64,000 bases of DNA from an uncultured Candidatus Saccharibacteria bacterium (GTDB lineage Bacteria > Patescibacteriota > Minisyncoccia > Phycocordibacterales > CAIRYW01). The stretch spans positions 934 to 64,933 of the forward strand of contig CAZAOU010000002.1 in NCBI GenBank assembly GCA_964487135.1. The letters are read 5' to 3'. Shown in pieces: positions 25,044 to 47,270 of the stretch (position 1 is its first letter; every line of letters begins with the position of its first letter). The translations under genes and the position numbers were made by a program. A model generated the notes under the pieces. That model was not told the DNA's origin and did no database searches. It saw only the letters and a list, made by a program, of their open reading frames with translations.

Positions 25044-25080
25044 CCACTTCACACTATCCACTGTTCACTATTTCTTATCC
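25044..25080 (+). promoter_or_regulatory. DnaA-box-like motif cluster upstream of dnaB
   Basis: Contains CTATCCACT, GTTCACTAT, CTTATCCCC and TTTATCCAG, ~70-100 bp upstream of the dnaB ATG. Confidence 0.3.
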
Positions 25081-25148
25081 CCATTTTATCCAGCTTATTT
25101 CCCCTTTTGTAAATTCCCTTCTCTCTTTGCCTGCTATACAATTAGCAC

Positions 25149-26537
25149 ATGTCTTCAAAGCCCATAAAAAAAGAAAGTTTGATGGTTCCTCCTCAACACC
25201 TAGAAAGTGAAATGGCTCTTTTAGGATCAATAATGCTCAAACCAGATGCAATGTATGATATTGCAGATATTGTTTCTCCCGATTCTTTTTATGCAGAAAA
25301 ACACAAAATTATTTTTTCTGCAATGCAAGAACTTTTAGCAAAAAACGAACCTATTGATCTTCTTTCTCTTTCAACAAAATTAGAATCGAAAGGATCACTT
25401 GAAGCAATTGGTGGAAGAAGTTATCTAGCAGAACTTATTCAAAGTGTTCCATCTGCTTCAAACATCACATATTATGCAGATTTAATAAAACAGAAATCAC
25501 TTTTAAGAAGACTTATTGAAGCTGCACAAAAAATTACAGAATTGGGTTTTGCAGAAAATGGCGAAATAGAAGAAATTTTAGACAAAGCCGATAAACATGT
25601 TTTTGCTGTATCTCAATCAACAAGCTCTAGAAAATTTACAGAACTTAAAGATACACTTGGAGAAGCGTGGAACCGTCTTGAAACTCTTCATCAATCAGGT
25701 GGACAGCTTAGAGGAATTCCAACTGGTTTTAGAGATTTAGACAATATGCTTTCTGGTTTCCAAAAATCAGATCTTATTATTCTTGCAGCACGACCTTCCA
25801 TGGGAAAAACTGCTCTAGCTCTTGATATTGCTCGCCAAGCAGCGGTAAATCACAATGTGTCTGTTGGAATTTTTTCTTTGGAAATGAGCTCGGGACAGCT
25901 TGTAGACAGAATGCTTGCCGCAGATTCAAAAGTAAACTCTTGGAAGCTTCGAACCGGAAAACTATCGGTTGATAAAGATTTTGATTTAATTAGAAATTCT
26001 TTGGATAGACTTTCAAAAGCTCCTATTTATATAGATGACGAACCGGGAAGTAATTCACTAAAAATGCGCTCAATCGCAAGGCGTTTGAAACGAGAAAAAG
26101 GATTAGGAATGATTGTTGTAGATTACCTACAACTAATGAGTCCAGTGCAGAGCAAAAATTCAGACAACGTTGTTCAACAAGTTACAGAAATTTCCAGATC
26201 TTTAAAACACTTGGCAAGAGAGCTTGAAGTGCCTGTTTTAGCTCTTTCACAGCTCAATCGTTCTGTAGAAACGCGGGGAGGTACTGGCCGACCAAAACTT
26301 TCAGACCTTAGAGATTCAGGATCTATTGAACAAGATGCTGATGTGGTGATGTTTATTCATCGTGAAGATAAATATAAAGATGATTCCGACAGAAAAAATG
26401 TTGCACAAATTCATGTTGATAAACACCGAAATGGGCCTGTAGGAAGTGTTGAACTATTCTTTGATGAAGAAAGAACAACTTTCCTTAATCTTGAAAGATC
26501 AAACATTTCTGACTTTACTAATGATGATGTTTTTTGA
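25149..26537 (+). CDS. dnaB: replicative DNA helicase
   Basis: DnaB N-domain, Walker A 'ARPSMGKTALAL', Walker B 'IVVDYLQLM', 'SQLNRSVE'. Confidence 0.9.
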   Translation: MSSKPIKKESLMVPPQHLESEMALLGSIMLKPDAMYDIADIVSPDSFYAEKHKIIFSAMQELLAKNEPIDLLSLSTKLESKGSLEAIGGRSYLAELIQSVPSASNITYYADLIKQKSLLRRLIEAAQKITELGFAENGEIEEILDKADKHVFAVSQSTSSRKFTELKDTLGEAWNRLETLHQSGGQLRGIPTGFRDLDNMLSGFQKSDLIILAARPSMGKTALALDIARQAAVNHNVSVGIFSLEMSSGQLVDRMLAADSKVNSWKLRTGKLSVDKDFDLIRNSLDRLSKAPIYIDDEPGSNSLKMRSIARRLKREKGLGMIVVDYLQLMSPVQSKNSDNVVQQVTEISRSLKHLARELEVPVLALSQLNRSVETRGGTGRPKLSDLRDSGSIEQDADVVMFIHREDKYKDDSDRKNVAQIHVDKHRNGPVGSVELFFDEERTTFLNLERSNISDFTNDDVF

Positions 26538-26543
26538 TAAAAA

Positions 26544-27140
26544 ATGGATAGTTTTGAAAAATTAGTAAAATTATTTGAAGAATTTCCCGGAATAGGTGGA
26601 AGACAAGCTAGACGCTTTGCATATTTTTTACTTTCTAAACAATCTAGTTTTATAGAAGAGCTAACATCTCTAGCAAAAGAAATTAAAAGAGATACTGCTC
26701 AATGCCCTCTTTGTATGAGATTTAGTTCTAAAAAAAACGATTCTACATGCAGTATCTGTATAGATGAAAATCGAGACAAAAACACTTTAATGATTATAAG
26801 CAAAGATACCGATCTTCGTTCAATTGAAGAAAGTGGTGTTTATAACGGACTTTATTTTGTTTTGGGTGGATTACTACCAATCTTAGAGAAAGATCCTAAT
26901 AAAAAAATAAGGATTGATGCATTAAGAAAACGGATAGAAAAAAACAACCTAAAAGAAATAATTCTAGCTTTTAATGCAACTTCAGAAGGAGAAAACACAA
27001 TATTGTTTTTAAAAGAAAATCTAAAACCTTTTGGTATAAAAATATCTGAATTGGGTAGAGGTATCTCAACAGGAACCGAAATAGAATACATAGACGCCGA
27101 AACACTAAAAGGCGCCCTCCAGAACAAGCACCCTGCGTAA
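26544..27140 (+). CDS. recR: recombination protein RecR
   Basis: HhH 'FPGIGGRQARRFAYFLL', C4 zinc finger 'CPLCMRF...CSIC', Toprim. Confidence 0.85.
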   Translation: MDSFEKLVKLFEEFPGIGGRQARRFAYFLLSKQSSFIEELTSLAKEIKRDTAQCPLCMRFSSKKNDSTCSICIDENRDKNTLMIISKDTDLRSIEESGVYNGLYFVLGGLLPILEKDPNKKIRIDALRKRIEKNNLKEIILAFNATSEGENTILFLKENLKPFGIKISELGRGISTGTEIEYIDAETLKGALQNKHPA

Positions 27141-27145
27141 ATAAA

Positions 27146-27188
27146 AAGACGAGGTTTAGTCCGCTTAAGCGGACTAAACCTCGTCAGG
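27146..27188. terminator. bidirectional intrinsic terminator
   Basis: 'gacgaggtttagtccgcttaagcggactaaacctcgtc' 17-bp perfect stem between convergent recR and rplU. Confidence 0.7.
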
Positions 27189-27196
27189 AAAAAATA

Positions 27197-27550
27197 TTAT
27201 TTTAAGGCAGTAACCTTAACCGCAAAGAAAGGCTGTCTGTGACCATTTCTTTTTAGGTATCGGCTCTTTGCTTTGTATTTTACAACCTCTACCTTCTTTG
27301 CTCTTCCAATTTCAACAATTTCTGCAATAACTTTTGCTCCGGAAATAAAAGGCGTTCCGATTGTCACATTAGATCCATCATCAACAAGAAGAACCTCAGA
27401 AAATTCAACTTTATCACCTTCTTTGTGATCTCCTTTGATTTTTTCAATTTTTACTGTCTCGCCAACAGACACGCGGTATTGCTTACCACCAGTCTGTATA
27501 ATGGCAAATTCGTCTTTATTAGATTTTGCTGTCTTTTTAGGCATGGGCAC
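27197..27550 (-). CDS. rplU: 50S ribosomal protein L21 with N-terminal extension
   Basis: 'FAIIQTGGKQYRVSVGETV' canonical L21. Confidence 0.85.
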   Translation of the reverse strand: MPMPKKTAKSNKDEFAIIQTGGKQYRVSVGETVKIEKIKGDHKEGDKVEFSEVLLVDDGSNVTIGTPFISGAKVIAEIVEIGRAKKVEVVKYKAKSRYLKRNGHRQPFFAVKVTALK

Positions 27551-27612
27551 AATTCTACCCCCTTTTTAGGTAAAAATCAAGTCCAAATAACAGATAGGAA
27601 TAAAGCGGAAAT

Positions 27613-28275
27613 CTATACAATGGCCATTTCCCTCACTCGTATGGCAGCCGGCTTATTAAAATCCGCCTCAAGCTCTTCCGCTGCTTCTTCAACAATAGTA
27701 TTAAATTCGTCCTTTGAAATTCCAAAAATACTTTTAAAATGAAGCAAATCTTCATTAATCTTCTTTTCACCCATCTCACTTAAAGACAATCTTAATGCCA
27801 ATAGAGCATCTTCCTTCCATGAAGAAAAATCGTAATTAGGATAGACCAAATCAGCAAATTTCAATATCTCAACAAAATCATACGATTTCATTATCTTACC
27901 AAACTCTTTCTCAAATTCTTCTTTTAGAGACTCATCAGAGTTAGTGGAATTTAAAAAATCAGAAATATTTGATGAAATATTTTTAATATCAAATATTTCT
28001 CTAATTTTAGACGCTTCTCTAAACTTTTTAAATTTAAATTGTTGAAGTATCACCATTTCTGCAAGCTGTCTCGTTTCCGGATCACTAACAATTTTTTCTT
28101 TTAGATCTTTAGGGATTATTAACGATGGAATATATTCACCAGTATCGTTAGTTGCTTTATCTAAAGACGCGGGTTCTGATAGATAGTTTAAAAGTCGCTC
28201 TCTTATTGATTTTATACCACTCTCCACAATATCCTCGTGACTAACATTTACATCTTCAGGGACTTCGTATGGCAT
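27613..28275 (-). CDS. hypothetical highly charged soluble protein, downstream of rmuC in the same orientation
   Basis: 220-aa ORF, no recognisable family; 9-bp gap to rmuC. Confidence 0.45.
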   Translation of the reverse strand: MPYEVPEDVNVSHEDIVESGIKSIRERLLNYLSEPASLDKATNDTGEYIPSLIIPKDLKEKIVSDPETRQLAEMVILQQFKFKKFREASKIREIFDIKNISSNISDFLNSTNSDESLKEEFEKEFGKIMKSYDFVEILKFADLVYPNYDFSSWKEDALLALRLSLSEMGEKKINEDLLHFKSIFGISKDEFNTIVEEAAEELEADFNKPAAIRVREMAIV

Positions 28276-28283
28276 ATTTATAC

Positions 28284-29336
28284 TTAATCTTCCAAAGAAG
28301 GTTTTTCTAAAACATCAACTTCAATCCCTGGACTATTTCCCGCAATCCTCAAGATATCTTTATCAATCTTCTTTAGTTCTTTTCCTGAAGCGTTGTAATG
28401 GTTAACCACTACAGACATAGCATTGCCAAGTTTTAAATGATAATCTTCGTAACTTTTTAGATGTTTACCCAAATCATCTACGCGTTTAATAATATCTTTT
28501 GCAGTCTCTTCAATTTGAAGTTGTTTTAGACCCTGAAGAACTGTTTGCAGATAAGCCAAAAACGACGTTGGAGAAACAATAATCACCTTATACTTCCCTG
28601 CAGCACGCTGAATTAAGCTTTCTGAGTCTTCTTTTAGAGCTCCTATTTTATTTATAAGTAAATCATAATAAATTGCCTCATGTGGTATAAACATAAAAGC
28701 AAAATCCGTTGTTCCGTTTTCTGGCTGAATATATTTTGAAGTTTCTACAATCCTGTTTTTGAGATCATTTACAAAAATCTTCTCTAATTTTTCTTTTTCA
28801 ATCTCATTTCTTTCATCAACAATACGATTATAATTTTCCAGAGAAAATTTTGAATCAACTGGAATAATTTTATCTTTTACAAAAACAGCCGCATCAACAA
28901 TGGTGCCGTCCGAAAAAGGATACTGCATCTGGAAACTTCCGGGAGGTAAAACATTTTTAAGAAGTGTTTCTAAATAATATTCTCCCAAAATTCCCCTTTG
29001 TTTTGGATTTTTTAAAACATCTTGCAAACTTTGAAGTTGGTCAGCAAAAGAGACTACTTGCCTATTTGTTTCATCAAGTTTGGTAAGACCCTCCGTTACA
29101 TCTTTGATGAGGCGTGCAGATTCACCGAATTGAGTTTTGACTGCGTCATGAATAAACCTATGTGACTCCCCTATTTTGTTATCTACAGTTCGTGAAAGAT
29201 TGTTTAGTTGATCCAAAATAAGTCTAAGACCTGTTCCATCTTCTTCTTTTGGTTTCTTTTTTAAAACAAAAAATAAGACAGCTATGTTAGCTGCGAAAAG
29301 TATTATAATTATTGCTATAAATCCCGTATTAGACAT
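28284..29336 (-). CDS. rmuC: DNA recombination protein RmuC family
   Basis: N-terminal TM, coiled coil, 'QRGILGEYYLETLL', 'PVDSKFSLENY', 'FAFMFIPHEAIY' matching RmuC conserved blocks. Confidence 0.75.
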   Translation of the reverse strand: MSNTGFIAIIIILFAANIAVLFFVLKKKPKEEDGTGLRLILDQLNNLSRTVDNKIGESHRFIHDAVKTQFGESARLIKDVTEGLTKLDETNRQVVSFADQLQSLQDVLKNPKQRGILGEYYLETLLKNVLPPGSFQMQYPFSDGTIVDAAVFVKDKIIPVDSKFSLENYNRIVDERNEIEKEKLEKIFVNDLKNRIVETSKYIQPENGTTDFAFMFIPHEAIYYDLLINKIGALKEDSESLIQRAAGKYKVIIVSPTSFLAYLQTVLQGLKQLQIEETAKDIIKRVDDLGKHLKSYEDYHLKLGNAMSVVVNHYNASGKELKKIDKDILRIAGNSPGIEVDVLEKPSLED

Positions 29337-29372
29337 GCCACTTAATTATAACAAAATATTGAGGTATTATAT

Positions 29373-29825
29373 ATGCATATGCAAAATGAAATAAAAGAAA
29401 AAATAAAAGATGCTATGCGAGCTAAAGACGAAATTAAGCTTGCGGTATTTAGGAGTATCTCAGCAGCTTTTACAAATGATTTAGTTTCAAAAAACAGAAC
29501 ACCTCAAGATATTCTAACGGATGAAGAATGTATGGATGTTGTTAGACGCTTAGCAAAGCAACGAAAAGATTCTATTGAACAGTTTGAAAAAGGAGGACGG
29601 CCAGAACTTGCTGAAGCAGAAAGAAAAGAACTATCGGTATTAGAAACACTTCTTCCTCAAATGATGGATAAGATGGAGATTAAAAAATTTGCTGAGGCAA
29701 AGAAAACAGAAATGGGAATAACCGACAAGACTAAATCTGGAATTTTGATGGGTGCTTTAATGAAAGACCTAAAAGGAAAAGCTGACGGCTCTGATGTTAA
29801 AGAAGTTGTTGAATCTCTTTTCTAA
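29373..29825 (+). CDS. GatB/YqeY domain protein
   Basis: 'IKEKIKDAMRAKDEIKLAVFRSI...DILTDEECMDVVRRLAKQRKDSIEQFEKGGRPELAEAERKEL' typical YqeY. Confidence 0.75.
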   Translation: MHMQNEIKEKIKDAMRAKDEIKLAVFRSISAAFTNDLVSKNRTPQDILTDEECMDVVRRLAKQRKDSIEQFEKGGRPELAEAERKELSVLETLLPQMMDKMEIKKFAEAKKTEMGITDKTKSGILMGALMKDLKGKADGSDVKEVVESLF

Positions 29826-29837
29826 ATCTTATAAATT

Positions 29838-30236
29838 TTATAGTTTTTGGCATCCTGATTCTGTACACCTGACAGCATCTGTAGTATTTCGGGCTGTAAA
29901 TGTAAAAGTGCCCGCCGCCTGATCGGTATCAAAATTAGTATCATCAGATACATCATATGCCCAGCCAGTTGGTAAATTTAACCAATTTGTAGAAGAACCA
30001 TCACACAAAGCTCCTCCACCACCATTTTGAGTAGCTGTAGGTTGGTTTAAGTTTTTACTATCCAAAATACACTGAAATCCAATACTAACCAGAGATCTCA
30101 TTGAAGCCTGAACACTTGCAACACTCGCCTTTCCTCTGGCATTACTAAGAGACGCTAAAACAACAGAAGATAAAATACCAATAATTGCAATTACAACAAG
30201 AAGTTCTATGAGTGTGAATCCGCGTTTCTTTGACAT
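29838..30236 (-). CDS. type IV pilin / pseudopilin (class III signal peptide)
   Basis: '[25 protein letters not shown]' prepilin cleavage/methylation motif; C-terminal Cys pair. Confidence 0.75.
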
Positions 30237-30332
30237 TCATATATTATATATCATTAATAAAACCAAAACATCATTTTGCCAATAAACCAAAAAACTGTTA
30301 TATTTTTTTTGTTTTTAGTTTATTCCTGTATT

Positions 30333-30364
30333 CTCTATCCACTATAAACTACTAACTATCCACT
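30333..30364 (+). promoter_or_regulatory. two copies of CTATCCACT motif in the tRNA-Glu/pilin intergenic region
   Basis: 'ctatccactataaactactaactatccact'; first copy fused to a TATAAA -10-like hexamer ~27 nt upstream of the tRNA. Confidence 0.3.
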
Positions 30365-30372
30365 TCTGCAAC

Positions 30373-30444
30373 GGCCCTATCGTCTAACGGTTAGGACATT
30401 GCCTTCTCAAGGCAGTAATCGGGGTTCGATTCCCCGTGGGGTCA
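30373..30444 (+). tRNA. tRNA-Glu (anticodon CTC)
   Basis: Manual fold gives a 7-bp acceptor ggcccta/tggggtc, D-arm gtct/ggac and anticodon stem ttgcc/ggcag. The loop ttCTCaa gives anticodon CTC. A 4-nt variable loop precedes the T-arm cgggg-ttcgatt-ccccg. CCA is not encoded. Confidence 0.75.
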
Positions 30445-30530
30445 CAAAAAGATACTCGTTCAATCTTTTTCACTAAGAAAGCTTCTACCGTCATATTGAC
30501 TTTTAATGAAAACATGTCAAATTTGTTGCT

Positions 30531-30707
30531 ATGAAAAAACTATTCTTCGTAGGGAGCTACACCTTCGTAGCAGGATGCCTTGCTAACGCATTTGGTTGGT
30601 GGTGGTTAAAGTCTCCCTGCCTTGTCCAACTCGGACATTTACTCATGGGATTGGGAGGTGGATTTTCCATATTGGGAGCATGGAAGAAAATGTCTGGAAA
30701 TGAATAG
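30531..30707 (+). CDS. small hydrophobic peptide (58 aa), Trp-rich
   Basis: 'MKKLFFVGSYTFVAGCLANAFGWWWLKSPCLVQLGHLLMGLGGGFSILGAWKKMSGNE'; GC-rich; below the ORF-track cut-off. Confidence 0.2.
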   Translation: MKKLFFVGSYTFVAGCLANAFGWWWLKSPCLVQLGHLLMGLGGGFSILGAWKKMSGNE

Positions 30708-30806
30708 TATTTCCCTATGAGTAATTAAAGTGCTCGAAGTCTTCTGACCTAGGGCGCATTTTTTATAATAATTGACAGCAACAATCTAAATGCTAGTCTC
30801 ATAAAC

Positions 30807-31199
30807 ATGAAAACCTACTCCACCCAATTTCGGGTCGAGGAAGCGCACCTTGATAAAGGAAACCACATGAATTGGCTGGCTCAACTTGCAATTGCTCAAG
30901 AACTTCATTTCCAATTCAGAGAAGAATTGGGATTGGGACTCGAGGAACTGCAAACGAAGCACAATTTGTTTTTGGTTATGGGGGTAGTGAAAGATGTCAC
31001 CTATCGTAGACAATTAAGATGTGGCGACATTGTAGATGTCGAAATGACGATGTCTATCTTAAGTCTCACAAGACTAGAGTTTCACTGCACTTTTCGCATC
31101 CATGGACAAACTGCCACGGAAATGAGTTGGGTAATGCCACTCGTATCTGGAGAACGTCCTGCCAAAATTCCTATGTGGATGACAACAATCATCAATTAA
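30807..31199 (+). CDS. hotdog-fold acyl-CoA thioesterase (4HBT/YbgC-like)
   Basis: 'FRVEEAHLDKGNHMNWLAQLAIAQELHFQF' matches the 4HBT catalytic-region pattern; GC-rich. Confidence 0.6.
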   Translation: MKTYSTQFRVEEAHLDKGNHMNWLAQLAIAQELHFQFREELGLGLEELQTKHNLFLVMGVVKDVTYRRQLRCGDIVDVEMTMSILSLTRLEFHCTFRIHGQTATEMSWVMPLVSGERPAKIPMWMTTIIN

Positions 31200-31329
31200 C
31201 CCGCCACCATGACAAGCTAGTGAGAAGCTAGTCAGCATTAGCGGGTATTTTTTACAAAAATTTCACTTAACTTAATAAACGGAATTTTTTACTGGATTCT
31301 TATTTTATTATATTTAAACTTAAAACGCC

Positions 31330-32355
31330 CTAATTCCTACGGTTTCTCAATTGTGTTTGATAATCTGCTATTCCCCATGATTCTCCCCTAAGTCTTACAA
31401 GATCAAGCTCATAATCTCTAATTGTTTCTGAGGGAGAACGATCAAAAGTATACCCGTCGCTTAATTTGGGACGATAATCTGGACTCAGCACATGAGCAAC
31501 ATCACGAATTCCACGACTAACCCTTCTAACAAAACCACTGAAAGTTTGTCTTTTTTTAATTTCTTCTATTTCTTGTTCAATGCTTTCAGAAGCTTTTCTT
31601 ATAGCAACAAGCATTTTATCAGTTTCTTCTAAAGAAGGGTGTTGTCTTACCAAATCTTCAAAAGTCTTAAATCGAGCCCATGACTCAATAGATTCTTCTC
31701 TTCGTCTTTCCAAACCTTTAGAATTAAATCCTTTCCCTTCATCAGATTCTGCACCTTTTTTAAAACTGTCAGATTCTACTTGTTTTCCAGTTAACCACCT
31801 CCTAAAATCCGCTACATCTTCATGATCTCTTTCTTTTACTGCTCTAAAAAAATTAGCTAACATGGACAGAGATACATACTCAACAGAAAACTCACCTTTT
31901 TTACGTAACGCTTCATCCTGTTGTTTAAAAGTATCTTCCATCATTTTTTGTACCTCGTCTGCAATAGGGAATCCTTTTTTACTACTATCCCATTTATGCC
32001 AGACATCTTGAGATTCATCTTTACCACCTTCTTCAAAATTTGAACTAGATTCTCTATCAATCATAGTAAGAATCTTTCCTGCATTTTCTGCAATAAGTTC
32101 TTTTCCTTTAGTTTTTCCTGTAATTTCTCTCTTACTATCTGGATGTGTTTTTCTAATTTGGACCGCTTCAAAAAATGAGCTGTCTTCTAAAGCTTTAAAA
32201 TATAACCGCGAAGAAATTCCTCTCTCTTTTTGTCTTTCTTTTGGATCAATATCGGTATCACTACGTTCAATGGTTGTTTCAGGTACGATCGGGCTATCCT
32301 CTAATTTTTCAGCATCATCCGGTCCTGATACTACTGCTGGTTCTTCAAATGACAT
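31330..32355 (-). CDS. hypothetical acidic/charged soluble protein
   Basis: 341-aa ORF, no TM, no recognisable motif. Confidence 0.45.
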   Translation of the reverse strand: MSFEEPAVVSGPDDAEKLEDSPIVPETTIERSDTDIDPKERQKERGISSRLYFKALEDSSFFEAVQIRKTHPDSKREITGKTKGKELIAENAGKILTMIDRESSSNFEEGGKDESQDVWHKWDSSKKGFPIADEVQKMMEDTFKQQDEALRKKGEFSVEYVSLSMLANFFRAVKERDHEDVADFRRWLTGKQVESDSFKKGAESDEGKGFNSKGLERRREESIESWARFKTFEDLVRQHPSLEETDKMLVAIRKASESIEQEIEEIKKRQTFSGFVRRVSRGIRDVAHVLSPDYRPKLSDGYTFDRSPSETIRDYELDLVRLRGESWGIADYQTQLRNRRN

Positions 32356-32441
32356 AAATTTATGTTTATAAACTTTAATAAGTGTTTTAATTATACGCCT
32401 TGGTTTTCACAATTCAAATATAAATCTGATACAATAATGTA

Positions 32442-32747
32442 ATGGCTATGCGCCTAAACCCCTATATAAATGCAGTTGCGGCGTCATCATACATTTGTAT
32501 GATTGGGGCATTTTTCAGATTTATGAATTTAACCCAGTCTGATAAGCCAGACACCATAATGGCTCCAATGATTGCTCTTTCGCTTCTTGTATTCTCTGTA
32601 GCACTTATGGCTTTTCTGTTTTTTTACTATCCCCTAATACTTCTTTTAGAAAACAAGCGAGATCAAGCTGTATCATTTTTCTTAAAAACTTTGGGAACAT
32701 TTTTTATTTTTGTTCTTGTATTACTAGCATCAATTAGTATTCAGTAA
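32442..32747 (+). CDS. hypothetical small membrane protein
   Basis: 101 aa, 3 hydrophobic helices; directly precedes the glutaredoxin-like gene. Confidence 0.4.
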   Translation: MAMRLNPYINAVAASSYICMIGAFFRFMNLTQSDKPDTIMAPMIALSLLVFSVALMAFLFFYYPLILLLENKRDQAVSFFLKTLGTFFIFVLVLLASISIQ

Positions 32748-34285: not shown

Positions 34286-34289
34286 GTTT

Positions 34290-37659: not shown

Positions 37660-37732
37660 AATTCCACTTTATACCACTTGCTTACCATTTTATACCACTC
37701 TGTTACATATGCAATCCAAAGTTTTCCACAAA
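37660..37732 (-). promoter_or_regulatory. putative MraZ operator: phased GTGG direct repeats in the mraZ upstream region
   Basis: On the gene strand, GTGG repeats (CCAC on + at 37664, 37674, 37695, 37726) spaced 10, 21 and 31 nt apart. Two occur within 'agtggtataaa', which overlaps a -10-like TATAAA. Confidence 0.35.
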
Positions 37733-37735
37733 ATA

Positions 37736-37765: not shown

Positions 37766-37783
37766 TTGAATTTATACTTATTT

Positions 37784-39244: not shown

Positions 39245-39275
39245 GTGACAATGATACTAAAATTATCAGAAAAAA

Positions 39276-39312
39276 CAAAAAAGCCCCGCCAGCTATGCAG
39301 CTGGCGGGGCAA
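39276..39312. terminator. intrinsic terminator (gccccgccagctatgcagctggcggggc)
   Basis: 12-bp GC-rich perfect stem flanked by A/T runs, between greA and lysS. Confidence 0.6.
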
Positions 39313-39321
39313 AAATAAATT

Positions 39322-39789
39322 TTATTTAACTTCAGTAATTTTATAACCAACCTTACCTGCCGGAGTTTTAAGTTCTACCCTCTCTCCCTTAGATTTACCT
39401 ATAAGGGCAATCCCCACTGGAGACTCATTAGAAATTTTACCCGTTGCAATGTCTGCCTCCTCACTTCCTACAATCTGATATGTTTTTTTTGTTTTGTCTG
39501 ACTCTTTTTCAATAGTCACCACAGCACCAATACCAACAACACCCCCATGATGTTCTGGAAGAAATTCTACATTGGACAAAATCTGTTCTAATTTATTTAT
39601 TCTTTCCTCAACTTCTGCTTGTTTTTCTCTAGCTTCTTGATACTCAGCATTTTCAGAAAGATCACCCATACTTTTTGCATATTCAAGATTGTCAGCAATT
39701 TCTCTTCGCTTTATTTTTTTCAAATAATCTAACTCTGCAGTTAATTCTTTGTGTTTTTCTTTTGTAAGATATTCTTTTGTTTCAGCCAT
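39322..39789 (-). CDS. greA: transcription elongation factor GreA
   Basis: 'LTKEKHKELTAELDYLK...MGDLSENAEYQEAREKQ' coiled-coil plus FKBP-like C-domain; start at internal Met 39789. Confidence 0.85.
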   Translation of the reverse strand: MAETKEYLTKEKHKELTAELDYLKKIKRREIADNLEYAKSMGDLSENAEYQEAREKQAEVEERINKLEQILSNVEFLPEHHGGVVGIGAVVTIEKESDKTKKTYQIVGSEEADIATGKISNESPVGIALIGKSKGERVELKTPAGKVGYKITEVK

Positions 39790-39870
39790 TATATTTATGG
39801 AAAGGCTTAAAAATGCGTCTCGAAACGCGCCCAAATTGTATAAATATGGAAGCAATAAGTCAATGAGACT

Positions 39871-41568
39871 CTAGTTAGTATTGACTAACTCCTTTTTATC
39901 TGTTGTTATCCAATTTAACACAGACCCCATAACTCTCATAGCACTGACTTTATATGTTGGTGGTCCCTGCTCTAAAACAACGGCAAAGGTATATTTTGGA
40001 TTTTCGTATGGAAAAAATCCTTCAACCCAAGAATTTACATACTGTTTCCTTGCACCCACTTCTGCGGTTCCAGTTTTTGCAGCGACAGTAAGTCCTGGAA
40101 TGAGTAAAGCTCCGGCGGTTCCGTTAGTGACGGCCAATCTCATACCTTCATGAACAATATTATATTTAGCTTCATCAATTTTTGGTAATTCAGATATTTG
40201 TCCTTGTTCATCTTTTCTTATAACTGGTTCAACGATTTTACCTTTGTTCGCTATTCCTGTCATCGCTCTTGCTATCTGAAGTGGAGTAACCTGAAAACCG
40301 TATTGCCCAATTGAAGTATGATATGTATTTCCCAGAGTCCATTCCTCTCCATTAAAAGTTTCTTTTTTCCATTCTGGTGTTGGAATATTTCCTGAAGGAC
40401 CAGATAACGCCCCCGTAGTAGGAATTCCTAGTTTAAACAGTGTAAAATATTTATCTAATTTTGTAATTCCTAAACCTTTTTGATCTGCATACCCTCCACC
40501 GACTGCATAAAAATAAACATCAGATGACACAGCTAACGCCTCTCTCATATCTGTAAAGCCGTGAACTTTCCAGTCCTTAAAAATACTTTTTTTGGAAGGA
40601 TCGTAAGGATTTGGAATAGATATTGATCCCTTACTTTCTATTTTTTTATTTGGACTTATTATGTTTTCTTCTAATACACCAACTGAAATATATGGCTTTA
40701 CAATAGAGCCCGGGGCATAAAGACCCGATATTGCTCTATCAAGTGAGGGTTTTCTCTTGCTATTAAAATAAAAATTTATAAGAGAACTGTCTTTTCCCTC
40801 TGTTAGGACAGAAGATTTATATTCAGGATAAGAAGAAATTGCTAAAACCTCACCTGTTTTTGCATCCATAATGACACCTGCACCACCCTCAAATCCCGAT
40901 TCATCAACTGCATAAGATAAAAAATGATAAAGTCTTTCCTGTAAAGATGCATCAATAGACAACGAAAGTTTTTCTCCTGAAATTGGTTCTTCAAGAATAC
41001 TTTGAGACTCCACCTCTCCTGTCGCATTTACTTCTGTAAGCTTTACTCCATTAGTTCCTGAGAGAATTTCATCAAAATATTTTTCCAAACCATCCTGACC
41101 GTTTATTTTAGTCTCATAAAAAAATCCTGAAGAATCTTTTCTTGGATATTTCACGAAACCAAGCAAAGTTCCGAAGCCACTTTGTTCAATATATCGGCGC
41201 ACCGGAAAAACAGAATCGGCAGACAATTCATTCCAAGATAAAGGAATATCGTTTCTATCCGTTATTACTCCCCTATGAGCAAATACAATATCTTTTCGAA
41301 GGAGATTATTTTTACTTTTTTCGCTATAAAAATTTGCTTTAACTATTTGTAAATCTACCGCCCTGTAAATAAACATTAAAATAATTATCAAAAACAAAAT
41401 ACCCCCTATTAAAAAGGGTTTGGATCCTATCGGCTTTTCTATTCGACCCTCAAATTGATATTTATCATAAGATGGAATATTTGTGGCATCCAAAAATACT
41501 TCATCTGGATCGATAGATTTAATCTTGTGAGAGCGATTATAAAAAAAGTTTTTTATGAAAAAAAACAT
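39871..41568 (-). CDS. mrdA: penicillin-binding protein 2 (class B, elongation-type)
   Basis: SxxK 'SIVKP', SxD 'SSDVYF', KTG 'KTGTAEV'; follows mreBC(D). Confidence 0.8.
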   Translation of the reverse strand: MFFFIKNFFYNRSHKIKSIDPDEVFLDATNIPSYDKYQFEGRIEKPIGSKPFLIGGILFLIIILMFIYRAVDLQIVKANFYSEKSKNNLLRKDIVFAHRGVITDRNDIPLSWNELSADSVFPVRRYIEQSGFGTLLGFVKYPRKDSSGFFYETKINGQDGLEKYFDEILSGTNGVKLTEVNATGEVESQSILEEPISGEKLSLSIDASLQERLYHFLSYAVDESGFEGGAGVIMDAKTGEVLAISSYPEYKSSVLTEGKDSSLINFYFNSKRKPSLDRAISGLYAPGSIVKPYISVGVLEENIISPNKKIESKGSISIPNPYDPSKKSIFKDWKVHGFTDMREALAVSSDVYFYAVGGGYADQKGLGITKLDKYFTLFKLGIPTTGALSGPSGNIPTPEWKKETFNGEEWTLGNTYHTSIGQYGFQVTPLQIARAMTGIANKGKIVEPVIRKDEQGQISELPKIDEAKYNIVHEGMRLAVTNGTAGALLIPGLTVAAKTGTAEVGARKQYVNSWVEGFFPYENPKYTFAVVLEQGPPTYKVSAMRVMGSVLNWITTDKKELVNTN

Positions 41569-41810
41569 TATTCAATTCTAAACGAAGTCTTAACAATATG
41601 CGATACCAAATAGATAACAATGCTCGCAACAATTATATAAAAATACGAAAACAAATCTCCCTTGGAAAAGGCGCTGACCCATAAAGGGGCCCAAATAAAT
41701 ATTTCCAAAAAATCCCAAGTAAAAGCACATCCTATAATTATTATTGGCGCCACATACCACGGACACAAAAATACTGATATCAAAATTGCAATGTTAGCAA
41801 AAATTCTCAT
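41568..41810 (-). CDS. small membrane protein in the mreD position (possible minimal MreD)
   Basis: 80 aa, 3 TM helices, between mreC and pbp2. Confidence 0.35.
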   Translation of the reverse strand: MRIFANIAILISVFLCPWYVAPIIIIGCAFTWDFLEIFIWAPLWVSAFSKGDLFSYFYIIVASIVIYLVSHIVKTSFRIE

Positions 41811-42571
41811 TTTATAATTGAGTGGGAAACGATAACATTCTCAATTTCAAAAGGATTGACCAAAGGCCTTACAATTAATCTTTTTAAAGTATCAGACTCT
41901 TTTTCTATAATCCTTTCAACCTTACCAGCAATACTTTTGTTATCTTGAAAAATTACCCCTTCGCCAACCGATACATTAACAGCAATAGGCACATAACTTT
42001 CATATACACCACCACCAATACCTTTAAGCTCTATAGGCACACGAGAAATTGATAGTCTGGCCTTTGATAATTTATCGTTAGTTGTTAACAATTCCACCTG
42101 AGAAAATTTATCGGAAACTTTTGATATAAAACCAATGGTAGTTGAAGAAAACAAAACATGATCACCGGATAAAACCCCATCAAGTGATCCTTTGTCTATA
42201 AAAAGAATATCGTAGGGTGTGTATCCGGGGTTACCTAAAATATAAGCATTCAAAAAACCTTTAGAATTTTCTGTGTCTGAATTATTTTCTTGGTTAATTA
42301 ACTTATACTCTGACAACATAGTTTGAAGTGATATCACTTCTTGTTTTAGTTTATTATTTTCTTCTTGAAGAAAATGTTTAGTAGTAAAAATATCTAAAAA
42401 TGGCATAGAAAAAAAAGACTGCCGAACAGAAAGTTTTAAAGAATTTATTGGATTATAAATAAAATAAAATATTGCTGATACAAAAATCGCAATGAGTACA
42501 ATAAAACCCGATTTCAAAAAAAATCTATTCTGACTTTCCTTTTTTTTTCTAGCGGACGAAAGGTAAATCAT
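41807..42571 (-). CDS. mreC: rod shape-determining protein MreC
   Basis: N-terminal TM, coiled coil, beta-rich C-domain; follows mreB. Confidence 0.7.
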   Translation of the reverse strand: MIYLSSARKKKESQNRFFLKSGFIVLIAIFVSAIFYFIYNPINSLKLSVRQSFFSMPFLDIFTTKHFLQEENNKLKQEVISLQTMLSEYKLINQENNSDTENSKGFLNAYILGNPGYTPYDILFIDKGSLDGVLSGDHVLFSSTTIGFISKVSDKFSQVELLTTNDKLSKARLSISRVPIELKGIGGGVYESYVPIAVNVSVGEGVIFQDNKSIAGKVERIIEKESDTLKRLIVRPLVNPFEIENVIVSHSIIK

Positions 42572-43610
42572 CTTCGTTATCTATAAGAGCATCCTTAAAT
42601 TCGTCTAGGCTTGATAAAATTATGCCAGCACCCCTAGCCACCGCGGTAAGAGGTTCATCTGAAATATAAACAGGAATTTTTAAACTCTCCTCTAATAATT
42701 CCTTAAGACCTCTAAGCAAAGCACCTCCACCTATTAAATGTATTCCTTTATACATAATATCGGAAACAACTTCAGGTGGTGTAATTTCTATAACCTCTTT
42801 TATGGACTCTATCAGTGTATCAATCGATAACCCGATTGCCTCTCTTACATCAGAATCTGTAATAACAACTTCTCTTGGTAATCCGGTAACCAAATCTCTA
42901 CCTCGCACAGGCATTTCCAGACTTTCTTGACCTGGAGTTACATTTCCGATGCCAATTTTTATTTCTTCTGCAGTTTTTTCACCAATTAAAATTTTAAATT
43001 CGTTCCTTAAATAAGAAACAATGTCGTTGGATAATCTATCGCCAGCAATTTTAATGTTTCTTGAATGAACAATTCCTCCAAGAGATATGACAGCAACATC
43101 AGTTGTTCCTCCTCCAATATCAACAATCATATTTCCAACCGGATCATGAATAGGCAAACCAATTCCAATTGCTCCAGCCATCGGCTCTTCAACAATAAAG
43201 ACATCGCGCGCTCCAGCATTTTTTGCAGCATCCCTTACCGCCCTTCTTTCAACGTTTGTAATTCCAGACGGTACCCCAACAACAACACGCGGACCAAGCC
43301 ATTTTTTTCTATTTTCTGTTGCCTTCTTTATCAAATAAGAAAGCATTTCTTCACAAACTTCAAAATCAGAAATTACCCCATCAACAATGGGCCTGACCGC
43401 AACAATATGCCCCGGAGTCCTTCCAAGCATATCTTTAGCTGATGCCCCAACAGCAACTACCTGACCAGTCTTTTGATTTACAGCAACAACAGAAGGTTCA
43501 TTTATTACAATACCTTCACCCTTAACCCAGACTAAAGTATTTGCGGTCCCGAGGTCAATACCAACATCTTCAGAAAATAATGAAAAAAATTTTTCTTTAA
43601 GAGTTGACAT
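42549..43610 (-). CDS. mreB: rod shape-determining protein MreB
   Basis: 'GIDLGTANTLVWVKGEGIVINEPSVVAV', actin-fold phosphate/adenosine motifs. Confidence 0.9.
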   Translation of the reverse strand: MSTLKEKFFSLFSEDVGIDLGTANTLVWVKGEGIVINEPSVVAVNQKTGQVVAVGASAKDMLGRTPGHIVAVRPIVDGVISDFEVCEEMLSYLIKKATENRKKWLGPRVVVGVPSGITNVERRAVRDAAKNAGARDVFIVEEPMAGAIGIGLPIHDPVGNMIVDIGGGTTDVAVISLGGIVHSRNIKIAGDRLSNDIVSYLRNEFKILIGEKTAEEIKIGIGNVTPGQESLEMPVRGRDLVTGLPREVVITDSDVREAIGLSIDTLIESIKEVIEITPPEVVSDIMYKGIHLIGGGALLRGLKELLEESLKIPVYISDEPLTAVARGAGIILSSLDEFKDALIDNEDDLPFVR

Positions 43611-44850
43611 GTTTTTTTATAATCTGCTCTAAAGATAACTTTTCTTCTTGTTTAGAAATTCTGTCGCTATACTCAAACACCTCTTCCTCAGCACTTTTTT
43701 TACCTACAACAATTCTTACAGGAATCCCAATTAGATCAGCGTCCGCAAATTTCTCTCCCGCCCTACTTTCCCTATCGTCATAAAGAACATCTGTATATTT
43801 TGATAATTCATTAAAAGCTTTTTCGGCAACACTTTTTGTTTTCTCATCATCTCCAATAGCAATTAAATGTATAGAAAATGGAGAAATCTCATTTGGCCAA
43901 AACATTTCTTTTTCTGTAGCACAAACCTCCACCACTGTTCCCAGAAGTCTTGTTATTCCTATTCCGTAACTTCCCATAATTACAGGATTACTCTGACCCT
44001 TATCATCTTTAAACATCAAACCTAGGGGTTTAGAATAAAAAGTTCCTAATTTATAGATATTACCAACCTCTATGGCCTTTTCTTGAACTAATTCACTTTC
44101 TGATACACCAAGCTCCTTAAGAGTCTCCTCATTTAAAACTTCTTTGTTAATAGCAATATTTTTTTGTTTGTGAATATAAATTGTGTCTTCACCAGAAGAA
44201 GTAATAGTTTGAAACTCGTGAGAATACTTAGTGCCAAAAGTTCCACCACTAGCCAAAGTTAAATAGGTTTTTCCACCAAGACCAACGCGCTCAAATATTT
44301 TATTGTAAGCATCTATTGATTTGTCATAAAAAGAATTTAATTCTTCTTCCGTTTTTGAAAAAGAATATAAATCTTTCATCAAAAATTCTCTTCCTCTAAG
44401 AATTCCACTTTTTGCCCTAAGTTCATTTCTAAATTTAGTTTGAAATTGATAAGGATATACAGGCAAATCTCTGTATGAAGAAATATATTCTTTCATAATT
44501 TCAGCAAGAATCGCCTCATGAGTGTAAGCAAGACCAAGCTCTGTTCCGTTTTTTAGTTTCGTCTTAAACCAATTATCAACAACTTCGTCATCCCATCTGC
44601 CAGTTTTTTCCCAAACAGTTTTTTCTTGAAGTGCTGTAAGTTTTATTTCCTGTCCTTCAATTTTATTCATCTCTTCCCTAACAATATTTTTTATTTTTTC
44701 AACAACTCTTAGTCCAAGTGGTAATAGAGAATAAACTCCCGCAAGATCTTTATGAATAAAACCTCCTCTAATCAAAACAGATGCATTTTTTGCCACTTCA
44801 TCTGAAGGACTTTCAAATCTAGTTTTTGTAAAAAGTTGTGATTGACGCAT
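43597..44850 (-). CDS. proS: prolyl-tRNA synthetase (short form, no editing insertion)
   Basis: 'MRQSQLFTKTRFESPSDEV...GLRVVEKIKNIVREEM', motif 2 'FRNELRAKSGILRGREFLMKDLYSF'. Confidence 0.85.
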   Translation of the reverse strand: MRQSQLFTKTRFESPSDEVAKNASVLIRGGFIHKDLAGVYSLLPLGLRVVEKIKNIVREEMNKIEGQEIKLTALQEKTVWEKTGRWDDEVVDNWFKTKLKNGTELGLAYTHEAILAEIMKEYISSYRDLPVYPYQFQTKFRNELRAKSGILRGREFLMKDLYSFSKTEEELNSFYDKSIDAYNKIFERVGLGGKTYLTLASGGTFGTKYSHEFQTITSSGEDTIYIHKQKNIAINKEVLNEETLKELGVSESELVQEKAIEVGNIYKLGTFYSKPLGLMFKDDKGQSNPVIMGSYGIGITRLLGTVVEVCATEKEMFWPNEISPFSIHLIAIGDDEKTKSVAEKAFNELSKYTDVLYDDRESRAGEKFADADLIGIPVRIVVGKKSAEEEVFEYSDRISKQEEKLSLEQIIKKHVNS

Positions 44851-44948
44851 ATTTAGTCAAGCTATTTTACTATAAAGAAAAAACTATCGTACTTTGACAA
44901 TAAACAAAAATTATGATATAATGCAACAATCTTAAAGCACCCCCCCTC

Positions 44949-46019
44949 CTACTTATGTAAAAGCTTAGACAAGTCAGAACTTGTAATTGCAATCATAAAA
45001 AAGATTAACAAAATAAAACCAACTGCATTTATAGCTGTAACCACTTTAGAAGATATTGAGCGACGAATTATTGCCTCAATTGCAACAATCAGAAGTCTTC
45101 CCCCATCAAGAGCTGGAAAAGGAATTAAATTTATTACAGCAAGATTAAGTGAAATTAAAGCAGCAAAAGAAAGTAGATATCCTCCCCCAAATTTTGAGGC
45201 ATCTCCAACCAAACCAACAATACCAACAGGCCCTGCAACTTGACTTAGGTCGGCTTTAGCAATGATTGCTCTAGATAAAAACTTAGCAATATCTTTTGTT
45301 GTCTGAATAAACCCGATATATGTTGTTTTTAACCCTTCATAAATTGCTAAGTGAATTGGTAATTTTTTTATTGAAATTAGAGCCATTTGAATTCCAATCA
45401 TGTAATCATTAGACGAAGTTTTTTCTGCAGAAATTATTTTTTCTTCATCAACGCCTTTATGTGAGACAACAACTTTTAGGGGTTTTCCAAAAGATTTAGA
45501 CACAGCACTTCTTACAACATCAGGAGAAATATCGCTATTAACCTGATCAATTTGTTTTATAAAATCTCCAGCAACAATTCCAGCTTTTTCTGCTGGAGAT
45601 CCAGCTGTTACGGCGGTTATGACCAAACTTGCATCTTTTGTAGAAGAAGCATCTGTTGGTGTTCCAAAATACAAAGCAACCGAAAACAACACCCATGCAA
45701 ATAAAATATTAAAAACAATACCTGCAACCAAAACTATTGCTTGAGAAAGTTTAGACCGAGAAGAAAAACTCCTAGAAGAATCCAAACCACCTTCCACCTC
45801 CTCTCCCGGATTTTCACCAAAAATTTTTACATACCCACCAAAAGGTATCAGATTTATTGCGTATATTGTTTCGCCTTTTTTCCAAGAAAAAATTTTAGGC
45901 GGAAAACCTATTGCAAACTCATCCACCCTCATCCCTGTTTTTTTTGCAGCCAAAAAGTGACCTAACTCATGAACAAATACAAGTGCAGTAATTATTACAA
46001 TAAAAATAATGACGGACAT
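44949..46019 (-). CDS. rseP: RIP metalloprotease RseP (site-2 protease, PDZ)
   Basis: 'FVHELGHFLAAK' HExxH, PDZ domain, C-terminal LDG motif 'FPALDGGRL'. Confidence 0.85.
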   Translation of the reverse strand: MSVIIFIVIITALVFVHELGHFLAAKKTGMRVDEFAIGFPPKIFSWKKGETIYAINLIPFGGYVKIFGENPGEEVEGGLDSSRSFSSRSKLSQAIVLVAGIVFNILFAWVLFSVALYFGTPTDASSTKDASLVITAVTAGSPAEKAGIVAGDFIKQIDQVNSDISPDVVRSAVSKSFGKPLKVVVSHKGVDEEKIISAEKTSSNDYMIGIQMALISIKKLPIHLAIYEGLKTTYIGFIQTTKDIAKFLSRAIIAKADLSQVAGPVGIVGLVGDASKFGGGYLLSFAALISLNLAVINLIPFPALDGGRLLIVAIEAIIRRSISSKVVTAINAVGFILLIFFMIAITSSDLSKLLHK

Positions 46020-46022
46020 AAA

Positions 46023-46583
46023 TTAACCTCCGAGAATTTCGGCCTCTTTCTTTTTGTAATGATTATCAAAAGACTCATTTGCTTCTTTTATTGTTTTTTC
46101 TACTTCGTTTTTTTCGCGCATCATCTGATCTTCACTCATAACACCTTCTTTCTTTTTCTTTTCCAGAACATCAATAATTTTGTTTCTATCTTGTCTTAGA
46201 CGAACTTTTGCCTCCTCAAGTTTTTGTTTGGCAACTTTTACAAATTGAGTTCTACTTTCAGTTGTTAATGGAGGAAAAGAAACCCTAACCCCCTTCTCAT
46301 CAGAAGAAACAGATACTCCAGTGTTGGATATCATTATTGCTTTCTCAATTGCCTTTATATTTGAAGAATCCCAAGGAGCAATTCTCAAAGTTTTAGGATC
46401 TTCTAAAGAAATACTAGCAACCTCATTAATTTTTACTTGGTTACCATACGCTTCAACCCTTATATCATCAAGCATTTGTGGAGTAGCTCGGCCCGTTCTA
46501 ATTGTCCCAAATTCTTTGGAAAGCCATTCGTTTATTTGTTTTACAGATTGTGTAATTTCTTGTGTTGATGCCATATGCCCCAT
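46023..46583 (-). CDS. frr: ribosome recycling factor
   Basis: 'LDDIRVEAYGNQVKINEVASISLEDPKTLRIAPWD' canonical RRF. Confidence 0.9.
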   Translation of the reverse strand: MGHMASTQEITQSVKQINEWLSKEFGTIRTGRATPQMLDDIRVEAYGNQVKINEVASISLEDPKTLRIAPWDSSNIKAIEKAIMISNTGVSVSSDEKGVRVSFPPLTTESRTQFVKVAKQKLEEAKVRLRQDRNKIIDVLEKKKKEGVMSEDQMMREKNEVEKTIKEANESFDNHYKKKEAEILGG

Positions 46584-46595
46584 TATACCAAAGCA

Positions 46596-47270
46596 TTACG
46601 AAAGAGCGACTAATGATAAAAGTTGTTTTACGGAAGCAGAGTGAGAGGGTAAATAATTTAATGCAACCGCAATACTTTCTAAACTTTTTGTATTTTTTGA
46701 AACATCTTTTAATAATTCTTCATGCAAAGCCATTAAAAAATCTTCTACCTCCTCTTTTGAAATTTCTTCATTTTTATATTTATCTGCCATAGATTCAGCG
46801 TAAGAATTTTTCTTTCCAATTGATAATCTTAAAAAAGATTCTGCCTCTTTTTGAAATTTATTTTTTTGGTCTATTTTAATTTCTCGGCTTTCAACCATTC
46901 TAGAAAAAAGAGTAGGAAGTAATATATTTCTTGGGGCTAAAACATAAAAACAAACAGACTCCGATGGTTCTTCAAAAGTTTTTAGAAGAGCATTTTGAGA
47001 TATTGAATCTGCACTCCAAAAAGAAACTAGGATATGTAATTGTGACTCTTTTACTGGAACAGAAAGTGTTCTTTCTTTTATTAATCTGGCATCTTCAATA
47101 AGCAATTTATCGTATTCAAATACTAAAACATCTGGGTTAGCTGAAATTGAAGACGATAGTTTTGTTTCAATAAAATCTTTTAGTTTATCTAAAGATACAT
47201 TTTTTCTTTCAAAAAATAATGCGTGGTGATTTATGGTGGATAGTGGATAGTGAATAGTGGATAGTGACAT
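46596..47270 (-). CDS. minimal DNA polymerase III delta'-like clamp-loader subunit (HolB-like)
   Basis: 'NALLKTFEEPSESVCFYVLAPRNILLPTLFSRM' matches the clamp-loader sensor-1/SRC block; degenerate P-loop region 'HHALFFERKN'; no Zn module. Confidence 0.55.
   Translation of the reverse strand: MSLSTIHYPLSTINHHALFFERKNVSLDKLKDFIETKLSSSISANPDVLVFEYDKLLIEDARLIKERTLSVPVKESQLHILVSFWSADSISQNALLKTFEEPSESVCFYVLAPRNILLPTLFSRMVESREIKIDQKNKFQKEAESFLRLSIGKKNSYAESMADKYKNEEISKEEVEDFLMALHEELLKDVSKNTKSLESIAVALNYLPSHSASVKQLLSLVALS
47229..47266 (-). repeat. tandem DnaA-box-like repeats (CACTATCCACT x3 plus a variant) overlapping the holB-like start
   Basis: + strand 'ggtggatagtggatagtgaatagtggatagtgac'; on the gene strand it reads atgTCACTATCCACTATTCACTATCCACTATCCACC. 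Confidence 0.5.

Follow-up and report, generated by a model that had tools for sequence, protein, structure and literature searches.

Short heptanucleotide arrays at three gene edges of a Paceibacteria genome contain a DnaA-box-like motif

The window analysed here, the whole 64,000-nucleotide stretch of contig CAZAOU010000002.1 from an uncultured patescibacterial genome, carries the nonamer CTATCCACT at three loci: upstream of the replicative helicase gene dnaB, in the intergenic region that separates a tRNA-Glu(CTC) gene from a divergent type IV pilin gene, and at the 5′ end of a holB-like gene (Table 1). MreB assigns the window to the Patescibacteria, class Paceibacteria (Parcubacteria), with 87% identity to the best species representative. 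The nearest DnaB homologs are 79% identical. A sequence-only reading had noticed the nonamer at these loci, oriented as the downstream gene, and had suggested a DnaA-type regulon of replisome genes or a repeatedly used promoter module. The occurrence is confirmed by five exact copies, at 25054(+), 30335(+), 30356(+), 47242(-) and 47256(-), all of which share the orientation of the downstream gene. One copy lies 95 bp before the dnaB start codon, as described. Both copies reported in the tRNA-Glu/pilin spacer are present, the first of them merging with a TATAAA. At holB, the count of three copies and one variant is correct for the 7-mer TATCCAC only; the 9-mer is represented by two exact copies and two with one mismatch, CTATTCACT and CTATCCACC.

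The frequency of CTATCCACT is non-random. Five copies were observed against an expectation of 0.39, and none of 100 shuffled sequences reached five. Taken as three independent loci, the occurrence has a Poisson P of ~0.007. One-mismatch copies amount to 19 versus 9.3 expected, and eight of the 19 lie inside the same three loci. The 11 isolated one-mismatch copies elsewhere in the 64-kb window show no excess over the ~9 expected. The two objections foreseen in the sequence-only reading, a frequency consistent with chance and the lack of a bias toward gene starts, do not hold, as the exact copies are also restricted to gene 5′ regions.

The earlier reading overlooked the 7-bp phasing of the copies. 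All three loci are contiguous arrays of 7-bp units, (NNNCACT)5-6. Successive nonamers are 7 bp apart and overlap by 2 bp. Because the phasing is contiguous, as seen in Tandem Repeats Finder (TRF) output and in a phased scan, the nonamers are overlapping reads of the arrays. A scan with (ATCCACT)3, allowing up to five mismatches, found these three loci only in the window, compared with 0.13 in shuffled sequences. TRF reported a period of 7 at holB (4.4 copies, 91% matches) and of 7/14 at dnaB. The arrays contain at least three head-to-tail units of period 7, as is usual for heptanucleotide simple sequence repeats (SSRs), and one genome-specific unit recurs at several loci, three in the window and three in another genome, L002. 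Each array is located at the 5′ edge of a gene, either past an upstream hairpin, in the promoter/leader zone, or across the first codons. The explanation favoured here, with modest confidence, is that the motif represents the repeat unit in three short and degenerate arrays of period 7, which originated by slippage and persist in weakly constrained DNA. The arrays belong to a known class of bacterial heptamer SSRs, here in a new lineage, and any function would be putative.

Table 1. Features at the three array loci (coordinates of the window).
Feature	Position	Strand	Remarks
Heptad array upstream of dnaB	25035..25069	+	TTTCACT TTCCACT TCACACT ATCCACT GTTCACT
Conserved triple box, candidate operator upstream of dnaB	25075..25105	+	TTATCCCCA 25075-83, TTATCCAGC 25086-94, ATTTCCCCT 25097-105
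Probable dnaB -10 hexamer TACAAT	25137..25142	+	ends 6 nt before ATG 25149, leaderless geometry
dnaB (replicative helicase)	25149..26537	+	Pfam DnaB and DnaB_C
Best sigma-70-like site upstream of tRNA array	30276..30304	+	TTGCCA, 17 nt, TG-extended TATATT; consensus match only
Heptad array upstream of tRNA-Glu	30323..30364	+	TTCCTGT ATTCTCT ATCCACT ATAAACT ACTAACT ATCCACT
tRNA-Glu (CTC)	30373..30445	+	ARAGORN and Rfam
holB-like gene (DNA polymerase III delta′ family, divergent)	46596..47270	-	Pfam DNA_pol3_delta2; just downstream of mreB
Heptad array at 5′ end of holB-like open reading frame	47228..47269	-	TGTCACT ATCCACT ATTCACT ATCCACT ATCCACC ATAAATC
Inverted partner of holB array, mreB-holB spacer	47299..47315	-	TGGTTGATGGTGTATAG; pairs with 47227-47243 (17 nt, 82% complementary)

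The three arrays are lineage-specific insertions, since syntenic relatives lack them at the dnaB, tRNA-Glu and holB sites. The dnaB array lies 79-114 nt upstream of the ATG and 3′ of a hairpin at 24976-25010. It is absent upstream of dnaB in seven relatives with conserved synteny (NTP-transferase gene, dnaB, recR). The interval between the NTP-transferase gene and dnaB is variable. In the window, 24642-24995 contains a non-conserved open reading frame (ORF) of 117 amino acids with a signal-peptide-like N-terminus, indicative of a secreted protein. In L203, an unrelated 81-amino-acid ORF lies at this place, and in L201 a GC-rich gap of 688 bp (9313-10000) is devoid of called genes and Rfam matches. 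The possibility that a structured RNA precedes dnaB was rejected, as neither the window nor L201 yielded an Rfam match there. The array in the tRNA-Glu/pilin spacer ends 8 nt before the tRNA and holds the -10-like hexamers TAAACT and TATAAA. The ortholog of tRNA-Glu(CTC) in L201 has no array, and an extended -10 is located ~10 nt before the tRNA instead. The holB-like ORF begins MSLSTIHYPLSTINHH. Its array starts 1 nt past the A of the ATG at 47270, overlaps the first 14 codons and encodes SLSTIHYPLSTIN. No close homolog of HolB besides itself was found among 5.8 billion proteins. In about 25 relatives the array is absent at the holB start and the mreB-holB junction; their holB starts a few codons before a conserved HHA motif.

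Arrays of the same period occur throughout the lineage. The survey covered the window and Paceibacteria loci, 1.29 Mb in total. At 18 of 21 self-matches, nine arrays of period 7 were detected, compared with zero to two for each of the periods 5-12. At 17 of 21 self-matches, intergenic DNA contained 21 arrays of period 7; the other non-harmonic periods between 4 and 13 yielded at most three each, and shuffled sequences almost none. Thus, the intergenic excess of period 7 over neighbouring periods, another characteristic of heptanucleotide SSRs, is present in the lineage. Arrays were intergenic in 34 of 42 cases although coding sequence makes up 81% of the DNA, and 26 of 32 spacer arrays lay within 10 nt of a gene boundary (11.3 expected). 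Of 43 arrays, 16 had their end no more than 13 nt upstream of a start codon, and 15 were found at most 25 nt from a stop codon. Units are specific for a genome but reused in it, e.g. AATTGAA in L062, ACTTTTG in L007 and CTATAAG in L034: nine of 40 within-genome pairs (22%) share a unit versus 7.5% between genomes (P = 0.003). In metagenomes, a scan for (CACTNNN)5 revealed generic heptamer SSRs in hosts of every GC content and was uninformative on (NNNCACT)n arrays. No report of such heptamer repeats in Patescibacteria was found in the literature searched.

A subset of the heptad arrays occurs as inverted pairs on both sides of a spacer, frequently frr-rseP or mreB-holB, with one array by the stop codon and the other by the start codon. 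Examples are L062 13140-13285, L065 12015-12205, L007 10156-10315 and 12440-12590, and L008 9077-9169; the units differ in each genome. Arrays might therefore be one arm of spacer-spanning hairpins, in RNA or DNA, which would serve processing, termination or occlusion around the start codon. The spacers of L062 and L065 fold into long hairpins (z = -4.2 and -7.2), an inverted partner was detected for 19 of 43 arrays versus 11 of 43 in the control, and that of the holB array lies in the mreB-holB spacer (Table 1). The holB array and its partner fold only weakly better than shuffled sequences (z = -1.65). The dnaB array has no partner, the tRNA-Glu array possesses a short local one only (inverted repeat 30311-23 / 30344-56), and partners are missing from most arrays. 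A structural role of this kind is a very improbable explanation for the arrays.

The promoter geometry of the lineage bears on the location of the arrays. A set of 893 genes from all Paceibacteria loci, each preceded by a spacer of 70 nt or more, was examined for -10-like hexamers. In 116 of them, exactly 6 nt separate the end of such a hexamer from the ATG, against a background of ~10. A further excess is found at 7-9 nt, and over half of the peak is TG-extended. Shine-Dalgarno-like motifs form a weak peak only. Many window genes, including dnaB and the pilin gene, share the 6-nt geometry (e.g. 21095-21100, 57345-57350, 57315-57320 on the minus strand, and 25137-25142). This geometry implies that leaderless mRNAs would be common in Paceibacteria and that the DNA abutting the start codon would be core promoter. 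In such largely leaderless genomes the arrays would thus sit in promoter or leader DNA.

The sequence-only reading had considered repeated use of one promoter module. The promoter-proximal location was roughly right, while the arrays do not systematically supply a promoter. A shared module of TTTTTAG and a -10 across the three loci was discarded, because the alignment is carried solely by the array itself. In a related proposal each heptad represents a -10 hexamer plus one base, so that arrays provide or multiply promoters. The last unit of the L002 array upstream of rseP, GTAAACT, places TAAACT exactly 6 nt before the ATG, TAAACT also occurs inside the tRNA-Glu array of the window, and some arrays are literally (TATAATC)3 or (TAGAATA)n. 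Correct placement is rare: a strong -10 at leaderless distance was found in three of 16 start-proximal arrays, which is no better than the 26% of genes generally. TANNNT shows no strand bias in the arrays (38 versus 32), and in TCCACT the essential A at -11 is missing. The reading of heptads as repeated -10 elements was rejected on the lack of a strand bias and the rare placement, and this proposal is considered extremely improbable. Arrays occupy promoter or leader DNA without systematically providing the promoter.

Slippage in weakly constrained DNA would fit this location. Slipped-strand replication, with its reported preference for 7-nt units, may give rise to the arrays, and these would persist where the sequence is under weak constraint. 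A leaderless first-in-operon gene should need little beyond a -10 located 6 nt before its ATG, so that the DNA nearby would tolerate expansion. An effect on expression, if any, would be generic, i.e. a G-poor unstructured leader or spacer, an altered spacing, or occasional hairpin arms.

The likeness to the DnaA box attracted the sequence-only reading. CTATCCACT matches the canonical box TTATCCACA at positions 2-8, which bears out the seven of nine positions and the TCCAC core claimed before, and two of the three targets in the window, dnaB and the holB-like gene, are replisome genes according to Pfam. In a DnaA interpretation, DnaA would bind the TATCCAC cores and co-regulate dnaB, holB and tRNA-Glu, or the arrays would titrate DnaA. 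The geometry does not agree. In oriC of Escherichia coli, the centres of neighbouring DnaA sites within an array are ~11 bp apart and the sites do not overlap; at a period of 7 bp the 9-mers overlap by 2 bp. The nonamer deviates from the relaxed DnaA consensus TTWTNCACA at positions 1 and 9, and a T occupies box position 9 in 26 of 27 units, where the DnaA box needs an A. The canonical box TTATCCACA is absent from the 64-kb window.

An element with DnaA-like geometry is present next to the dnaB array, and it is the sole one here. The TTATCC variants mentioned by the sequence-only reading exist near dnaB, not as heptads but as a separate element, a conserved triple box spaced by 11 bp. In alignments, eight Paceibacteria genomes possess these direct repeats ~45-75 nt upstream of dnaB. 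Coordinates elsewhere are L201 9928-9954, L203 4951-4978, L204 9930-9956, L205 9927-9953 and L206 9929-9955. The middle box ends in CACA in relatives, and the boxes of L205 read GTATCCACT, TTCTCCACA and TATTCCACT. The triple box is followed by an extended -10 located 6-8 nt before the dnaB ATG; the start region of the window reads TACAAT-tagcac-ATG, and relatives have TGATAGAAT at the position of this -10. Within 1.41 Mb the signature is confined to dnaB loci, with five matches versus zero to one in shuffled sequences. The triple box may well be a genuine operator, possibly one for DnaA or a response regulator.

The co-oriented triple box adjoining the dnaB array is a point in favour of the DnaA interpretation; yet relatives keep the triple box and lack the arrays. 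Conservation at orthologous promoters, expected for DnaA sites, is thus not seen for the dnaB, tRNA-Glu and holB arrays. CTATCCACT is not enriched in relatives (six matches in 1.23 Mb of 80 related genomes), and other genomes have equivalent arrays with unrelated units. CACT-type arrays beyond the window occur essentially only in L002 and its closest relatives. One L002 array is located 6 nt before the rseP ATG, after the terminator hairpin of frr, a second 12 nt before the ATG of a class II aminoacyl-tRNA synthetase (aaRS) gene, after the greA terminator. The third lies between murA and a mazF-like gene, antisense to both and beside a hairpin. Because no replication gene is among these neighbours, a replisome theme is lacking. 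A DnaA-type replisome regulon, the central proposal of the sequence-only reading, is therefore not supported, given the 7-bp overlap, the missing canonical box, the absence of arrays in relatives and the neighbours in L002. Most likely, TATCCAC resembles the DnaA-box core by coincidence, and a DnaA function of the arrays is highly improbable.

No dnaA or oriC was detected in the window or the loci of relatives examined; for dnaA this is a weak negative, as the tblastn query was an approximate DnaA sequence of Bacillus subtilis. A box cluster in L025, the only one in relatives, was rejected as an oriC reference because it is inside a gene. The cumulative GC skew of the window (1-64000) rises to ~14 kb and then falls steadily, and genes are mostly on the plus strand at the left and on the minus strand from 31-48 kb. 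The pattern suggests a convergent region, terminus-like or transcription-driven, and not an origin, which also speaks against the DnaA interpretation.

Several observations count against plain slippage in unconstrained DNA. In the six CACT arrays, mismatches per heptad position number 11, 7, 14, 5, 1, 0 and 1 (P = 2e-5), the CACT core being best kept; as the unit boundaries were set by eye, ascertainment may account for part of the signal. The best 21-mers alone gave P = 0.018. Five of the six arrays are co-oriented with the downstream gene, a weak point (P = 0.11). Copy number is identical between two assemblies of the L002 species; the arrays of the independent assembly, L208, are identical to those of L002. 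In L209 and L210, whose RseP is 88% identical to that of L002, the arrays at the three orthologous sites have all retained their length and phase. Between L002 and L209, differences affect heptad positions 1-3 at 17 of 36 and positions 4-7 at 10 of 48 (P = 0.017). At the greA-aaRS site of these two genomes, the ACT core is kept in four of four units, while positions 1-3 changed at eight of 12 (P = 0.001). Nor does plain slippage account for the recurrence of a single unit at several places in the same genome. Together, these points suggest some sequence-specific constraint.

Gain and loss of arrays between species are clear, while L209 keeps the unit number of L002 and the assemblies of the L002 species are identical. 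The frr-rseP spacer measures 0, ~50 and 143 nt in three near relatives. Between L002 and L209, the divergence at heptad positions 1-3 exceeds the ~10-15% of the adjacent hairpin and spacer, which are ~85-90% identical in a by-eye estimate. On these comparisons, arrays seem to turn over fast, yet a residual constraint on core and array length appears to exist beyond plain slippage. The window and L002 are not close relatives. The CACT core common to both is probably of independent origin, because their RseP proteins are only 54% identical and the nearer relatives of L002, L004 and L006, have no arrays. Deep conservation was rejected for these reasons, and a chance match is plausible; for a 4-nt core among ~25 array-bearing genomes it is, by a rough estimate, not unlikely.

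Two further observations were made in these spacers. The L209 region 4610-4650, orthologous to the murA/mazF array of L002, reads TTTCACA AACCATT AGTGATT AATCACT. Within it lies the palindrome AGTGATTAATCACT, each half of which corresponds to the omega-type heptad WATCACW. A second repeated spacer element, AAGTT(T/C)(A/G)TAAAGT..AAGTTCATAAAGT, immediately follows stop codons (mreB, greA) and precedes terminator hairpins. Sites of this AAGTTCATAAAGT type are L002 10465-10510 and 19098-19140, L209 17066-17115 and L004 11012-11040; the element is conserved between L002 and L209.

The main rival to slippage in weakly constrained DNA is a tandem binding platform, in which a nucleic-acid-binding protein reads the CACT core every 7 nt with one protomer per heptad. 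Such a protein would tune transcription or translation of the adjacent genes. Candidates are a ribbon-helix-helix (RHH) protein on duplex DNA, a ToxR/H-NS-like promoter binder, or an OB-fold protein (cold-shock or S1) on the transcript. The uneven conservation of the core, the ACT core, length and phase kept between orthologous arrays of L002 and L209, the reuse of a single unit at several loci of one genome and the position in the promoter/leader zone are in accordance with this proposal. Precedents exist. Dimers of the omega/ParB protein of pSM19035 each occupy one heptad in runs of seven to 10 contiguous WATCACW units, and no fewer than four contiguous units are required (PMC9499535). The TTTTGAT heptads of Vibrio cholerae ctxAB recruit ToxR, ToxT and H-NS (doi 10.1101/2021.05.14.444153). 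Among the 28 window ORFs scanned, 18 of them with Pfam matches, no RHH, cold-shock or other candidate binder was found, the window covering only 64 kb of the genome. Further, conservation of the arrays ends with very close relatives, an array of L002 runs antisense to the genes on either side, the distance from array to gene start ranges from 0 to 79 nt, and a single genome may carry several unrelated heptad units, e.g. L007. A heptad-reading factor is considered possible but unlikely.

Both precedents differ from the arrays of the window. Like the omega operators, these consist of contiguous 7-bp units in runs of at least four, overlap promoters and have a core containing CAC. The unit is ATCCACT or ATTCACT rather than WATCACW, the context is chromosomal and dispersed instead of a plasmid partition locus, and a cognate RHH gene is not among the 28 ORFs scanned with Pfam, with the genome only partly visible. 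The ctxAB heptads also are arranged in tandem upstream of a core promoter, and their number varies by strain; there, the binders are known and a single locus is concerned, whereas several loci are found here.

A combined scenario would not regard the arrays as inert. The triple box might represent the ancestral operator of a factor reading TCC(A/C)C, DnaA-ATP or another protein, and slippage might have multiplied its core into arrays which recruit or titrate the same factor at dnaB, tRNA-Glu and holB. Each Paceibacteria genome would then own a heptad "word" co-evolving with a heptad-reading protein at leaderless gene boundaries. This scenario is distinctly improbable.

Closer parallels to the arrays are known among bacterial heptamer repeats. 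Among the long SSRs of prokaryotes, those with 7-nt units form the most abundant class, for which an origin by polymerase slippage was proposed (Mrazek, 2007, cited after PMC4679880 and PMC4692102). Genome-specific intergenic heptamer families, inverted arrangements included, are represented by GGGAATC in Xanthomonas and GGGGAYT in Nostoc (PMC4692102). Like these, Mrazek's long SSRs and the cyanobacterial STRR sequences, the Paceibacteria arrays show an intergenic enrichment of period 7, genome-specific units and occasional inverted pairs, and their change of length and sequence between relatives appears rapid as well. The units of this group are G-rich and quadruplex-capable, in arrays that are often long and near-perfect, whereas the arrays here are short (four to six units), imperfect and composed of G-poor, AT-rich units.

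The TAACTGA repeats of marine Beggiatoaceae are located a few nt upstream of start codons of unrelated genes (MacGregor, 2015, PMC4679880). As in the window, a genome-specific heptamer forms short direct tandem sets (two to six copies there), with some copies inside ORFs. The TAACTGA sets are intergenic, mostly forward-oriented and a few nt from start codons, a placement that the Paceibacteria arrays share in part. The downstream genes have no functional theme and include essential ones. Differences concern the unit, the degenerate copies with a conserved 4-nt core, and the position: distances before the ATG are 6 and 12 nt in L002, whereas one array of the window precedes a tRNA (8 nt), one overlaps holB and one is 79 nt from dnaB. 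Here, the host is a bacterium of the Candidate Phyla Radiation (CPR) with leaderless promoters, and three loci are visible in 64 kb. DnaA-box clusters resemble the arrays in the seven of nine positions including TCCAC and in the triple box adjoining one array, and differ in non-overlapping spacing, the A of TTATCCACA at position 9, conservation and the link to replication, which is not seen in L002.

With the assignment to simple sequence repeats, a tempting false lead is removed: the DnaA-box-like motif beside two replisome genes is a repeat unit. The poorly understood genome-specific intergenic heptamer repeats are extended to the CPR. Since they occupy the very short promoter/leader DNA of mostly leaderless genes, changes in their length could plausibly alter expression. 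The sharp leaderless -10 geometry and the conserved dnaB triple box as a candidate operator are by-products for work on expression and replication control in the CPR.

DNA uptake sequences and Chi sites are frequent, dispersed single copies. Both were rejected as an identity of the motif, which forms arrays at three loci. A relation to the GTGG operator of MraZ was rejected as well on account of the ~10-bp spacing, the opposite strand logic and its own locus. GTGG repeats of this spacing (GTGGTATAAA / ATGGTAAGCAA / GTGGTATAAA / GTGGAAT) are present at 37664-37699 on the minus strand upstream of mraZ (Pfam MraZ) and look like the classical MraZ operator heading a division/cell-wall cluster. The ORF 61697-63370 (minus strand, 557 amino acids) contains at 62338-62728 a tandem repeat of 114 bp in ~3 copies with 75-85% identity, which suggests a repeat-domain protein, probably located on the surface.

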